Below, in pieces: positions 43,787-46,698 of a stretch of 64,000 nt of DNA (positions are counted from its first letter, which is position 1; each line of letters opens with the position of its first letter). The position numbers were made by a program, and so were the translations under genes. Location: contig OZ241869.1 of the NCBI GenBank assembly GCA_965202805.1, forward strand, positions 2,784,001-2,848,000. Direction: 5' to 3'. Origin of the DNA: Longimicrobiales bacterium. GTDB taxonomy: Bacteria > Gemmatimonadota > Gemmatimonadetes > Longimicrobiales > Gaopeijiaceae. The notes under the pieces are model-generated. The model saw only the letters and a list, made by a program, of their open reading frames with translations. It was not told where the DNA came from and did not search any database.

Positions 43787-43837
43787 CGGCAGAGTTTAGC
43801 TTCTGCCTGGTGACCATGCCAGCCTCATCGATCGAGA

Positions 43838-43920
43838 CGGAGGCGGGGGGACTCGAACCCCCAAGGGCTTGCGCCCGCCGCATTTCGAGTGCGGTGCCTT
43901 ACCAATTAGACTACGCCTCC
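43838..43920 (-). tRNA. tRNA-Ser(CGA)
   Basis: Cloverleaf with long variable arm; CCGCA-CTCGAAA-TGCGG anticodon arm. Confidence 0.92.
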
Positions 43921-43977
43921 GGACGAAACCGGGCCGATCGGCATAAGGACGGAGAATCTTCTCCAACTACTCTTCAA

Positions 43978-44051
43978 TCGGGGCGCCCGGATTTGAACCG
44001 GGGACCTCTGCGACCCGAACGCAGCGCTCTACCGGACTGAGCCACGCCCCG
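43978..44051 (-). tRNA. tRNA-Pro(CGG)
   Basis: CTGCG-TTCGGGT-CGCAG anticodon arm. Confidence 0.95.
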
Positions 44052-44130
44052 AGAAAGGGGTGCCGCCCGCAGGCGACATACAGCCAAACTGACAGCCGGA
44101 TCCGCCATCCAGCAAGGTGATTCCCGTCCG

Positions 44131-44391
44131 GCGGACGGGGTGGGATTCGCAGCCGAGGTCCGGCGCCAGCCGGCCCGAAGGCGAGGTGAGGGCGAAGCCC
44201 GCAGCCTCCACCCCGGGTTCGAAGCCCGTCCGGCCCGCCCGCCAGATTGGCCCGCCGTCAGCGGACGGGGTGGGATTCGCAGCCGAGGTCCGGCGCCAGC
44301 CGGCCCGAAGGCGAGGTGAGGAGGCGTAGCCTCCGCAACCTCCACCCTGGGTTCGAAGCCCAGCCCGTCCGGGGCCGGGCTCCGCCCGTCA
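44131..44391. repeat. Two tandem ~130-bp palindromic units carrying copies of the tRNA-Ser(GGA) 3' end
   Basis: GCGGACGGGGTGGGATTCG recurs at 44131, 44261 and 44392 with a conserved internal core. Confidence 0.9.
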
Positions 44392-44392
44392 G

Positions 44393-44476
44393 CGGACGGG
44401 GTGGGATTCGAACCCACGTGGGCGTTAGCCCACACGATTTCCAATCGTGCGCCTTAAGCCACTCGGCCACCCGTCC
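44393..44476 (-). tRNA. tRNA-Ser(GGA)
   Basis: CACGA-TTGGAAA-TCGTG; long variable arm. Confidence 0.95.
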
Positions 44477-44690: not shown

Positions 44691-44929
44691 GGTGAGATCA
44701 CAACCGAGGACCGCGCCAGCCGGCCGAGGTGAGGCGGATGCGCAGCACCGCAACCCTCCGCCTCGGGGGTAGCGGCCAGCGACCGCGCCCGTTGGTGACT
44801 ACACAGGGTGAGGTTCGCAGCCGAGGTCCGGCGCCAGCCGGCCCGAAGGCGAGGTGAGGAGGCGAAGCCTCCGCAACCTCCACCCCGGGTTCGAATCCCA
44901 CCCCCTCCGGGGCGAGCCCCGCTCGCCAG
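44691..44929. repeat. One near-intact (44806-44909) and one degenerate (44691-44769) copy of the same unit downstream of tRNA-Ser(GCT)
   Basis: Shared core GCAGCCGAGGTCCGGCGCCAGCCGGCCCGAAGGCGAGGTGAGG. Confidence 0.85.
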
Positions 44930-45015
44930 CGGAGGGGGTGGGATTCGAACCCACGAGACCCTCTCGGGTCAACGCCTTAGCAGGGCGCCGCCTTAAGCCA
45001 CTCGGCCACCCCTCC
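44930..45015 (-). tRNA. tRNA-Ser(GCT)
   Basis: GCGCC-CTGCTAA-GGCGT; long variable arm. Confidence 0.95.
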
Positions 45016-45018
45016 GAA

Positions 45019-45091
45019 TTGCCCCGCCTGGGATCGAACCAGGACTCTTCTGATCCAGAGTCAGACGTGTTGCCAGTTACACCACGGGGCA
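45019..45091 (-). tRNA. tRNA-Gln(CTG)
   Basis: TCTGA-CTCTGGA-TCAGA. Confidence 0.95.
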
Positions 45092-45136
45092 TCCTGTCCC
45101 AATTTGTGCGCTCGCCACCCCTGCTGGCAAGCAGCA

Positions 45137-45209
45137 AGCCACCAGTCGGATTCGAACCGACGACCCCGTCATTACGAGTGACGTGCTCTACCAGCTGAGC
45201 TATGGTGGC
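45137..45209 (-). tRNA. tRNA-Thr(CGT)
   Basis: CGTCA-CTCGTAA-TGACG. Confidence 0.95.
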
Positions 45210-45259
45210 GACCATGCCGACCGCCTCGCGCATCGCGCATTTCGCCGGCCAACCAGGAA

Positions 45260-45332
45260 TGGAGCCGAGGGGAATCGAACCCCTGACCTCAGCATTGCGA
45301 ACGCTGCGCTCTCCCAACTGAGCTACGGCCCC
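45260..45332 (-). tRNA. tRNA-Ala(CGC)
   Basis: CAGCG-TTCGCAA-TGCTG; G3:U70 pair. Confidence 0.95.
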
Positions 45333-45367
45333 TGCCTGCCCGCTTCCGCGGATACCGTGTTGAAGCA

Positions 45368-45441
45368 TGGGCGCGAGAGGACTCGAACCTCTGACCTCTA
45401 CGATGTCAACGTAGCGCTCTAACCAGCTGAGCTACGCGCCC
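45368..45441 (-). tRNA. tRNA-Val(GAC)
   Basis: CTACG-TTGACAT-CGTAG. Confidence 0.95.
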
Positions 45442-45485
45442 TCGGCCGGAACCCCGTCCTGGCCTTCACCTCCCCCGGAGGGGAA

Positions 45486-45559
45486 TACGCCCGGGAGGAC
45501 TCGAACCCCCAACCTCTTGATCCGTAGTCAAGCGCTCTGTCCAATTGAGCTACGGGCGC
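45486..45559 (-). tRNA. tRNA-Arg(ACG)
   Basis: CTTGA-CTACGGA-TCAAG. Confidence 0.95.
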
Positions 45560-45611
45560 TGATTTGCCGTCCGCCTTCACCAGGGAAGGCCAGCCGTTGA
45601 TGGCCTGCAAG

Positions 45612-45695
45612 TGCCCACGACAGGACTCGAACCTGTACGCCGTTTCCGACACTGGTCCCTCAAACCAGCCTGTCTACCAATTCCAGCACGTGGGC
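45612..45695 (-). tRNA. tRNA-Leu(GAG)
   Basis: CTGGT-TTGAGGG-ACCAG; variable arm. Confidence 0.95.
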
Positions 45696-45744
45696 AAATG
45701 TTCTCCATCGAAACGCTGCCGCCGCCTGGCGCCGCGGCCTGCCA

Positions 45745-45829
45745 TGCTCGGAGAGGGACTCGAACCCTCACGGGGTTAACCCCCACAGGATCCTGAATCC
45801 TGCGCGTCTACCAATTCCGCCATCCGAGC
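45745..45829 (-). tRNA. tRNA-Leu(CAG)
   Basis: CAGGA-TTCAGGA-TCCTG; variable arm. Confidence 0.95.
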
Positions 45830-45857
45830 TCGCTCGCCTCGCGAACGGACTGCACCA

Positions 45858-45930
45858 TGGAGCCGAGGGGAATCGAACCCCTGACCTCCTGAATGCCATT
45901 CAGGCGCTCTCCCAACTGAGCTACGGCCCC
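45858..45930 (-). tRNA. tRNA-Ala(GGC)
   Basis: CCTGA-ATGGCAT-TCAGG. Confidence 0.95.
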
Positions 45931-45970
45931 GATCCTTCGCCGATGACCCGATTTGTCAAGAAACAAACAG

Positions 45971-46044
45971 CGGGGCTGACGGGACTCGAACCCGCGGCCT
46001 CCGGTGTGACAGACCGGCACTCTAACCAACTGAGCTACAGCCCC
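45971..46044 (-). tRNA. tRNA-Asp(GTC)
   Basis: CCGGT-CTGTCAC-ACCGG. Confidence 0.95.
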
Positions 46045-46074
46045 TGTTCCGCGCTCCTCGCGCGTCCTTCCAAA

Positions 46075-46146
46075 CGCCCTCACGGGGAATCGAACCCCGA
46101 CCGCCACCTTGAAAGAGTGGTGTCCTAGCCGTTAGACGATGAGGGC
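46075..46146 (-). tRNA. tRNA-Glu(TTC)
   Basis: CCACT-CTTTCAA-GGTGG. Confidence 0.95.
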
Positions 46147-46162
46147 TCTCCCCCCAGTTGTA

Positions 46163-46235
46163 CAGGCCCGGAGGGACTCGAACCCCCAACCCCCGGTTTT
46201 GGAGACCGGTGCTCTACCAGTTGAGCTACGGACCC
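46163..46235 (-). tRNA. tRNA-Trp(CCA)
   Basis: CCGGT-CTCCAAA-ACCGG. Confidence 0.95.
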
Positions 46236-46278
46236 CCGCGCACACAACCGGCCATCCTCCGGCCGGTGAGCCGGTAGA

Positions 46279-46351
46279 TGGCCAGGGGCGGAATCGAACC
46301 GCCGACACCGCGATTTTCAGTCGCGTGCTCTACCAACTGAGCTACCTGGCC
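46279..46351 (-). tRNA. tRNA-Phe(GAA)
   Basis: CGCGA-CTGAAAA-TCGCG. Confidence 0.95.
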
Positions 46352-46383
46352 AAAAAAACGCCCGAACCTTTTCGGTGCGGGCG
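46352..46383 (-). terminator. Intrinsic terminator abutting the 5' end of tRNA-Phe (candidate attenuator)
   Basis: Minus strand CGCCCG-C-ACC-GAAAA-GGT-T-CGGGCG followed by 7 T. Confidence 0.75.
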
Positions 46384-46407
46384 GCTGGGTCGGGAGTCTG
46401 CCGGGGG

Positions 46408-46536
46408 CTACCGGCGAGTCCCGCTTCCCCGCCCGCGAGGGCTCGACCACGTATCGGACGGAAACCAGCGAAGCGCCCGCACGCGGCCCGACCTCTGGAA
46501 GGCCCGCGGTCGACGGGTTTCGGTCGCTCCCCGCAT
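46408..46536 (-). CDS. Candidate 42-aa leader peptide (not in the ORF track)
   Basis: GGAGG 8 nt before ATG; MRGATETRRPRAFQRSGRVRALRWFPSDTWSSPRGRGSGTRR*; stop lies 24 nt before the terminator stem. Confidence 0.5.
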   Translation of the reverse strand: MRGATETRRPRAFQRSGRVRALRWFPSDTWSSPRGRGSGTRR

Positions 46537-46593
46537 GATCTCCGCCTCCGTTCTCCTGTTTGTTGCCTTGCGTCAAACTGTCCTGCTACGTGG

Positions 46594-46620
46594 AAAACGC
46601 CGCCATTTCGGCGGCGCTTT
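46594..46620 (-). terminator. Hairpin or weak terminator after tRNA-fMet
   Basis: CGCCGCC-GAAAT-GGCGGCG-TTTT on the minus strand. Confidence 0.5.
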
Positions 46621-46624
46621 CAAG

Positions 46625-46698
<74 letters not shown>

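Follow-up and report, generated by a model that had tools for sequence, protein, structure and literature searches.

How might a bacterium adjust the transcription of core transfer RNA (tRNA) genes, present in single copy, to the demand of its own ribosomes? The question is raised by a tRNA gene cluster on the minus strand of contig OZ241869.1 from a Longimicrobiales bacterium (assembly GCA_965202805.1), where we analyzed a stretch of 64,000 nucleotides (nt), positions 2,784,001 to 2,848,000, referred to here as the window. In bacteria, the main controls on tRNA synthesis act on promoters, through growth-rate and stringent control, and on processing. In this cluster, the spacer between the first gene, tRNA-Met(CAT), and tRNA-Phe probably contains a trp-type, ribosome-mediated transcription attenuator located inside a core tRNA operon. 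An earlier note on the same DNA had proposed a leader-peptide attenuator at this site, with control codons read by the tRNAs of the cluster itself. The leader open reading frame (ORF) that it described, together with the terminator and antiterminator geometry, is borne out across the family; its argument from codon matching is not. Throughout the text, tRNA-fMet means tRNA-Met(CAT), the term "initiator" being a label given by that note.

The elements on which the attenuator depends are given below in the order in which they would be transcribed.

46620-46594, minus strand: T1, a GC hairpin (CGCCGCC/GGCGGCG, loop GAAAT) followed by T4, identified by folding.
46593-46588, minus strand: 5' strand of the long-range helix P0 (CCACGT), complementary to the Thr-Trp codons ACGTGG at 46452-46447.
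46549-46545, minus strand: Shine-Dalgarno (SD) sequence GGAGG, 8 nt before the ATG.
46536-46408, minus strand: leader ORF of 42 codons plus TAG (ATG 46536, TAG 46410-46408), translated as MRGATETRRPRAFQRSGRVRALRWFPSDTWSSPRGRGSGTRR.
46467-46444, minus strand: peptide window W24-F-P-S-D28-T29-W30-S31, the proposed stall site, with codons TGG 46467-46465, GAT 46455-46453, ACG 46452-46450, TGG 46449-46447 and TCG 46446-46444.
46442-46439 and 46434-46431, minus strand: GCCC/GGGC, the weak 4-bp hairpin between regions 1 and 2 (1:2) of the window's genus.
46436-46429, minus strand: region 2 (arm A), the 5' arm of the antiterminator, GCGGGCGG, codons 34-36, identified by folding.
46423-46419 with 46395-46391, and 46415-46411 with 46404-46400, minus strand: apical stems of the antiterminator, CGGGA/TCCCG and GCCGG/CCGGC, with the TAG in the loop.
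46384-46377, minus strand: region 3 (arm B), CCGCCCGC, which pairs with arm A (antiterminator) or with region 4 (terminator).
46383-46352, minus strand: T2, the candidate intrinsic terminator, made of a hairpin at 46383-46359 (-15.7 kcal/mol) and T7 at 46358-46352, abutting tRNA-Phe.

Several of these elements had been placed by the earlier note from the letters alone, and its GGAGG-led ORF, its GC hairpin with seven T before tRNA-Phe, and its alternative stem GCGGGCGG:CCGCCCGC, which shares the left arm of the terminator and has inner pairs around the stop codon, were all found at the positions given there. The first base of tRNA-Phe is G1 at 46351 according to Rfam and 46352 according to ARAGORN.

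The mechanism that we propose would operate as follows. Transcription would start 5' of tRNA-fMet, cross the leaky hairpin T1, and enter a leader carrying an SD sequence and a short ORF. Four segments of this leader would be available for pairing: region 1, formed by the Ser-Pro-Arg codons; region 2, which is arm A; region 3, which is arm B; and region 4, which precedes the T-run at tRNA-Phe. Pairing of regions 3 and 4 would produce the intrinsic terminator, pairing of 2 and 3 the antiterminator, and pairing of 1 and 2 an anti-antiterminator, for which the predicted helix is strong in the majority of genera and weak in that of the window. A ribosome at the last codons, or at the stop codon in the apical loop of the antiterminator, would cover region 2, letting 3:4 form and stopping transcription before tRNA-Phe. 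A ribosome with the Asp, Thr, Trp or Ser codon in its A site would cover region 1 and leave region 2 free, letting 2:3 form and allowing RNA polymerase to continue into 13-16 tRNA genes present in single copy. Synthesis of tRNA would then rise when the leader is decoded slowly and fall when it is decoded fast. The stall might be caused by a scarce aminoacyl-tRNA, amounting to feedback on the operon's own products, by the conserved nascent peptide, or by both.

Decisive support that these features go beyond chance comes from comparison with the sequences of relatives. Removal of duplicates left 59 distinct fMet-Phe spacers, drawn from dozens of genera. In 57 of these an SD-led ORF lies in the frame of the motif W-x3-D-T-W-S, and the ORF, the position of its stop codon and the three alternative helices are kept in the same proportion (57/59), in keeping with the conservation among relatives that the earlier note had looked to. 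The 57 leaders start with ATG (31), GTG (12) or TTG (14), and in 27 colinear spacers the first base of the start codon varies between A, T and G before an invariant TG. They end with TAG (45), TAA (11) or TGA (1), and the distance from the Asp codon to the stop is 45 nt in 29 spacers, 42 nt in 26 and 39 nt in two, always a multiple of three. The ORFs with the best SD sequence are 17-71 codons long, mostly 24, 30 or 42. Pairing with the anti-SD sequence has a median free energy of -8.0 kcal/mol for the 57 leaders compared with -3.8 kcal/mol for 117 out-of-frame start triplets, and the SD duplex of the window reaches -9.5 kcal/mol. Entropy at codon positions 1, 2 and 3 is 0.61, 0.47 and 0.82 in the 27 colinear spacers, the third position varying most. 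With features of this kind, the leader ORF is presumably translated.

At the invariant part of the peptide, the first Trp (Trp-1) is encoded by TGG in 55 of the 57 leaders and the second (Trp-2) by TGG in every one. Asp occurs in all 57 (GAT 45, GAC 12). Thr is found in 56 (ACG 48, ACA 4, ACC 3, ACT 1), with an Ala codon, GCT, in the remaining leader, and Ser follows Trp-2 in 56, written as TCG, TCT, TCC, AGC or AGT. A Val at position -2 is written as GTC, GTG or GTA. The spacing from Trp-2 to the end of the peptide varies between 10 and 12 residues. Trp accounts for 7.5% of leader codons compared with 1.5% genome-wide, and codon choice at the invariant positions departs from that of long ORFs across the genome, with GAT used for Asp in 79% of leaders (45/57) versus 20% and ACG used for Thr in 84% versus 36%. 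No Pfam or NCBIfam family matches the leader peptide. Genera differ in the codon phase in which they read the nucleotide motif of arm A, GCGGGCGGG, and the constraint on this part is therefore one on the RNA; W-x3-D-T-W-S, in contrast, varies in the manner of coding sequence. One spacer, L030, has a one-base frameshift 5' of the motif.

The RNA structures are conserved along with the peptide. In 30 short-type relatives, whose spacers align nearly free of gaps under MAFFT, the three mutually exclusive helices occupy fixed columns. There, the 1:2 helix (GCCCGC/GCGGGC) is 97.8% paired, compared with 29-49% when one partner is slid along the other, and has a CG to UA compensation at two pairs. The 2:3 helix between arms A and B is 86.7% paired versus 40-60% when slid, with compensations from GC to AU and from AU to GC; each pair of its 8-bp core is formed in 73-100% of the relatives, five of the eight in 100%. 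The 3:4 terminator is 94.2% paired versus 22-52% when slid, again with a CG to UA compensation at two pairs. Two spacers, L072 and L076, have one position changed jointly in all four regions, from C/G/C/G to U/A/U/A. RNAalifold, applied to the whole spacers of 27 short-type relatives, independently recovers T1, P0, 1:2 and 3:4. The layout in these relatives is that of a classical attenuator with four segments.

A broader sample gives similar indications for the antiterminator. In a model-fitted alignment of the 39 covariance-model matches described below, its 26 pairs are 87.7% paired compared with 42-48% when the partner is slid, and 21 pairs have changes on both sides compared with 11.5 ± 1.7 in shuffled alignments, none of 500 of which scores as high. 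The apical helices (6 and 7) contribute nine pairs, and all nine have changed on both sides across relatives. When 41 spacers were folded singly, every one gave a terminator hairpin, its free energy between -13 and -27 kcal/mol and its T-run within the final 32 nt of the spacer. The run is 6-8 T long in 38 of them; spacers L013, L014 and L015 have 4, 5 and 3. If these 41 transcripts are ended before the 3' arm of the terminator, most of its 5' arm pairs with the upstream arm A. Of the 41, the 39 that bear the ORF have 8-45 nt between arm A and the stop codon (11-21 nt in 34 cases) and 23-35 nt between the stop codon and arm B.

In the window itself, the minimum free energy (MFE) structure of the whole spacer is the long antiterminator and not the small terminator (z = -2.23; three of 200 shuffled sequences fold as well). 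T2 is also called by a simple terminator scan, but the scan gives four sites compared with 2.7 ± 1.9 in shuffled sequence and is not significant alone. T2 presumably terminates transcription. In the window's genus the 1:2 helix is reduced to GCCC/GGGC and the untranslated fold favors the antiterminator (terminator probability 0.24), and the untranslated state is thus predicted to read through.

How would a ribosome at different points of the leader change this balance? The earlier note had proposed folding the RNA with and without a segment masked by a ribosome, and we did so for the 57 leaders with a footprint extending from 12 nt before to 14 nt after the P site, an assumed size, using the equilibrium probability of the terminator stem as output. 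With no ribosome, the median probability is 0.76 (0.24 in the window). With Trp-1 in the A site it is 0.64 (window 0.04), and with Trp-2, W30 of the window, it falls to 0.33 (window 0.02). A ribosome located five codons before the stop gives 0.99 (window 0.93), and one with the stop codon in the A site gives 0.98 in both cases. On the columns shared by the 30 relatives, a footprint with Thr, Trp-2 or Ser in the A site covers region 1 and spares region 2; with Asp there, the cover of region 1 is only partial. One codon upstream of this interval region 1 is not reached, and one codon downstream region 2 is entered. The invariant D-T-W-S residues thus coincide with the control window, where the footprint covers region 1 and not region 2.

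Two further structures accompany the proposed switch. Helix P0 (CCACGU:ACGUGG) would enclose the SD sequence and the start codon, and it is present both in the MFE structure of the window and in the RNAalifold consensus. All six of its pairs can form in 47 of the 59 spacers and five of six in another 10. Compensatory changes occur in L014, L017 and L067, mismatches occur in eight other spacers, and there are lineage-specific extensions, GGAC/GUCC in the window and UCGG/CCGA in L053. Taken together, these sequence data are mixed and only suggestive of a P0 helix. Spacers L014 and L017 retain P0, with its compensatory changes, as well as the antiterminator and the terminator, and may be natural translation-independent variants.

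Hairpin T1 is kept in all spacers, with 10 pairs in the RNAalifold consensus of the whole spacers. In one genome, G090 (spacer L080), the fMet-Phe spacer is only 51 nt long and consists of the T1 hairpin alone. T1 must be leaky because in this genome nothing else separates tRNA-fMet from tRNA-Phe, and there it could be a leaky terminator, a pause hairpin or a processing hairpin. As a hairpin with three to five T, T1 is conserved throughout the family, including spacers that have no leader ORF.

The earlier note had also argued that the codons of the leader are matched to the tRNAs of the cluster. Codons 21-32 are indeed 12 consecutive codons that are readable by 11 cluster tRNAs, and a run of this length has a probability of about 0.024 under the codon usage of the genome and 0.003 under mononucleotide shuffling, both being post hoc values. 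Over its whole length, however, the leader has 25 of 41 codons (61%) that match, compared with 59.4% of the codons in a baseline of 1369 long ORFs with high GC content at third codon positions from the same genome (P = 0.48), and the general match does not stand. The corresponding stretch in relatives includes ATG, GTG, GTA, ACC, ACA and ACT, which cluster tRNAs do not read. The note had remarked that the leader is free of amino acids that the cluster lacks, and this feature proved not to be conserved, as the leaders of relatives contain H, I, K, N and M.

The invariant control codons, Asp, Thr, Trp and Ser, are all served by tRNAs of the operon, but the chance that four residues would all fall among the amino acids of the cluster is about 0.1. 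Because of this chance, and because conservation is seen at the amino-acid level, the tRNA-supply feedback loop envisaged in the earlier note is put forward here only as a suggestion. The retention of Thr and Val through synonymous codons, and the position of Trp-1 outside the control window, suggest that the nascent peptide itself matters. Our fuller proposal is that dwell time at the Asp, Thr, Trp and Ser codons, set by tRNA supply together with the nascent chain, autoregulates a core tRNA operon in many Gemmatimonadaceae, and we hold it at somewhat less than even confidence.

Several observations weigh against an attenuator of the proposed kind. The leader contains no tandem run of one regulatory codon, unlike classical leaders. 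Spacer L014, from the complete genome G007 of the same genus, and spacer L017, from G022, have no ORF and keep the hairpins, and the leader RNA can therefore persist without translation. Five genomes of the family that lack the peptide carry other, ORF-less spacers, and the leader peptide was found in none of 24 sampled genomes of genus g65. Covariation is limited, with only two or three compensated pairs per helix in the 30 relatives, because the helices are highly conserved. The masking calculations use an assumed footprint size, and the fold probabilities are equilibrium and not kinetic values. In addition, the terminator is predicted to be on by default in most genera (median 0.76), such that an essential operon would need either frequent stalling or substantial basal read-through.

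One alternative retains the attenuator and assigns the stall to the nascent peptide, [F/L]-W-x-x-[S/A/T]-D-T-W-S(-S)-P-R, acting in the exit tunnel or the peptidyl-transferase center like an arrest peptide and keeping the ribosome within the antitermination window. A cue such as a metabolite, a factor or an incoming aminoacyl-tRNA would tune release, and codon-tRNA identity would be secondary. We rate this possibility as less likely than not. In its favor, conservation is at the amino-acid level, with four codons in use for Thr, three for Val and five for Ser; Trp-1 is kept although masking there barely shifts the terminator (0.64 versus 0.76); and ACC, ACA, ACT, GTG, GTA and ATG are not read by cluster tRNAs. 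The W-x3-D spacing of the leader may also resemble that of TnaC. Nevertheless, part of the motif is constrained as RNA, since ACGUGG forms P0 together with CCACGU and AGCCCGCG makes up region 1, and the N-terminal part is free both in length (17-71 codons) and in sequence. No known arrest-peptide family in Pfam or NCBIfam was matched, and the bias toward ACG (84% versus 36%) and GAT (79% versus 20%) shows that choice at the codon or RNA level matters too. TnaC-like sensing at the stop codon was considered separately and rejected: the spacing from Trp to the end varies, and a ribosome at the stop favors the terminator.

Other explanations dispense with regulation or with the ORF. The spacer might hold an independent small gene, for a small protein or a dual-function small RNA (sRNA) comparable to those derived from attenuators, with T2 as its own terminator or as a stabilizer of its 3' end, the tRNAs being supplied by constitutive read-through and RNase P cleavage. 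The peptide is conserved, T1 demonstrates that hairpin-plus-T elements of this operon can be leaky, and cleavage by RNase P at tRNA-Phe would presumably leave the same hairpin with a U tail whether or not termination occurs. This explanation is nonetheless improbable. A plain terminator has no use for the conserved and compensated 2:3 and 1:2 helices, which compete with it; the stop codon keeps its place in the antiterminator loop, with constant spacing to arm A and to arm B; and the searches found the peptide nowhere but at this position. An RNA-only switch or processing element, such as a protein- or ligand-binding structure or an RNase site with an ORF incidental to GC-rich sequence, would account for L014 and L017, which retain P0, the A:B pairing and T2 without the ORF, and for the compensations in P0; open frames are common at 66% GC. 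Against it stand the coding signatures of 57 of the 59 spacers, namely three SD-led starts, three stops, in-frame length changes and third-position variation, which make it highly improbable. Nor does any Rfam family reach its gathering score: a search of 46340-46640 at E values up to 10 returned five weak sRNA matches, the best at 15.4 bits against a cut-off of 50. A known RNA family was also rejected as a candidate, there being no leader, riboswitch or T-box family match in Rfam.

How widely is the attenuator distributed? Of 18 other genomes from the same genus, 13 have the spacer over its full length, with 75-97% identity. A covariance model built from the genus (R1) and applied with strict filters matched once in each of 39 genomes among the 151 of the family, representing 24 of 81 genera. 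A peptide profile searched against 401 genomes of the phylum gave strong matches only in the window's family (24 of 69), and elsewhere in the phylum only weak matches inside long ORFs. The tallies of 18 and 401 genomes each include one unpublished genome (G025 and G321), on which no conclusion depends, and the related genomes are not independent. Finally, a peptide-pattern scan of the GTDB species collection, made with an 8-row peptide alignment, matched 62 stretches and led to 28 confirmed cases; all 28 records are titled Gemmatimonadota, Gemmatimonadales, Gemmatimonadaceae or "Longimicrobiales." Every match sits between tRNA-Met and tRNA-Phe of the same cluster, with gene order kept.

The spacers of some relatives are organized differently. 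In genus g65, L082 and L083 have no leader ORF and carry a hairpin with T5 about 25-30 nt before tRNA-Phe, which may represent another type of terminator for this site, one that does without an ORF. In another family of the order, spacer L018 (genome G035) has partial copies of the tRNA-Phe 5' end (GGCCAAGTAGCTCAGTT...) and AT-rich repeats, and no leader.

The dependence of the downstream tRNAs on read-through follows from the layout of the operon, whose other features are these.

46739-46710, minus strand: operon promoter of the sigma-70 type, recognized by reading, with -35 TTGACA at 46739-46734, an 18-nt spacer and the -10-like TACCTT at 46715-46710.
46698-46624, minus strand: tRNA-Met(CAT), gene 1 of the cluster, 5' of the attenuator (ARAGORN, Rfam).
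44929-46351, minus strand: 13 tRNA genes, for Phe, Trp, Glu, Asp, Ala, Leu, Leu, Arg, Val, Ala, Thr, Gln and Ser(GCU) (ARAGORN).
43836-44476, minus strand: tRNA genes for Ser(GGA), Pro(CGG) and Ser(CGA) (ARAGORN; terminator scan).

The promoter is about 11 nt 5' of tRNA-fMet. A generic promoter scan did not call the TTGACA/TACCTT site at 46739-46710. The pattern TTGAnn-N16-18-TAnnnT, ending 9-16 nt before tRNA-Met, is present in all 65 distinct related loci, and the same pattern occurs inside none of the 59 fMet-Phe spacers. One further candidate inside the spacer, TTGACG at 46576-46571, was rejected, having no -10 partner and being present in only part of the genus. Given a promoter pattern in 65/65 loci and in 0/59 spacers, a T-run that abuts tRNA-Phe and a leaky T1, transcription of the tRNAs beyond T2 depends on polymerase that starts at the fMet promoter and reads through.

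ARAGORN identifies 17 tRNA genes on the minus strand of the window, and Rfam at gathering score reports only tRNA matches in the window. The 13 genes from Phe to Ser(GCU), separated by gaps of 3-51 nt, are likely to be the ones under attenuator control. The last three tRNA genes are preceded by gaps of 452, 339 and 55 nt, and their co-regulation is uncertain because these gaps contain repeats as well as hairpins resembling terminators. Three to four copies of one repeat, about 111-130 nt long, fill the long gaps after Ser(GCU) and Ser(GGA), at 44111-44418 and 44803-44955. At its start, each copy duplicates the 3' end of a tRNA-Ser gene, and these could be tRNA-derived repeats or decayed duplications.

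Across the genome ARAGORN makes 57 tRNA calls, several of them doubtful. By these calls, the cluster holds the sole genomic copies for Phe, Trp, Asp, Glu(UUC), Ala(GGC), Ala(CGC), Leu(CAG) and Leu(GAG), as well as for Arg(ACG), Val(GAC), Thr(CGU), Gln(CUG) and the three Ser tRNAs (GCU, GGA, CGA). Odd calls in this genome (G000) include tRNA-Stop(tta), tRNA-??? and over-long genes of 88-97 nt, with examples at C1:502084-502165 and 3533314-3533388, and are likely to be false positives or tRNA-like elements. In public data, 18 RNA or possibly-RNA sequencing runs share 0.12-0.29 of sampled words with the stretch, a signal that probably reflects conserved tRNAs only.

If the attenuator functions as proposed, a translation-coupled layer would be added to the control of tRNA synthesis, in which the ribosome itself senses tRNA supply relative to demand. 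On our fuller proposal, this would constitute a direct feedback from demand to supply on the transcription of tRNA genes, a layer of control that is not known to have been described for those of bacteria. The leader peptide, 24-45 residues long, phylogenetically conserved and with an invariant D-T-W-S, is also new and is a candidate arrest or pause sequence. The whole system is compact, at about 230 nt, and would offer a regulatory handle in the phylum Gemmatimonadota.

The closest comparison is with the trpL leader of Escherichia coli, which, as summarized in PMC4007540, has an SD-led short ORF with Trp codons, segments that pair as 1:2, 2:3 or 3:4, and an intrinsic terminator before the first regulated gene. 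In that system, as is proposed here, a ribosome stalled at the control codons masks region 1 and frees region 2, and a ribosome bound at the stop masks region 2. Unlike trpL, which regulates enzymes of amino-acid biosynthesis, the present element would regulate tRNAs, and it is internal to an operon, where one tRNA gene and a leaky hairpin precede it. Five codons separate its two Trp codons, its Asp, Thr and Ser are no less invariant than these, and conservation of the peptide is seen at the amino-acid level. It also has an extra long-range helix, P0, predicted to enclose the SD sequence and the start, and in the window's genus its 1:2 helix is weak and the untranslated state is predicted to read through. 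Of the trp/his-type features, the SD-led short ORF, the terminator in front of the tRNA genes and an antiterminator that shares a strand with it are present. The 1:2 helix is clear in the 30 short-type relatives and weak in the window's genus, and the control codons lie where a stall would free the antiterminator and form no tandem run of one regulatory codon.

Control by several different codons has a counterpart in the thr and ilv leaders of E. coli, and leader-peptide attenuation of a gene for the translation apparatus has one in the E. coli pheST attenuator with its pheM leader. Those leaders differ from the present one in having runs of regulatory codons and low peptide conservation, and none of them controls tRNA genes. 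A conserved motif in a regulatory leader peptide is known from the arrest-peptide leaders TnaC, SecM and Erm. TnaC acts at the stop codon on Rho-dependent termination, and the geometry here differs from it because a stall at the stop would favor termination. The mycobacterial whiB7 upstream ORF attenuator (PMC10274678) is similar in that a conserved upstream ORF and a terminator convert ribosome stalling or translation stress into read-through. Its target differs, being a transcription factor, and it belongs to a different phylum and has an unrelated peptide.

Full-text literature searches returned no report of leader-peptide attenuation of tRNA genes, and searches on Gemmatimonadota returned no work on RNA-level regulation. 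The 14 leader peptides of PMC4007540 are said there to control tRNA synthetase or amino-acid genes. Set beside these systems, the element described here would belong to a known class of mechanism, and what is new is the core single-copy tRNA operon as its target, the conserved peptide, and the family-wide distribution.

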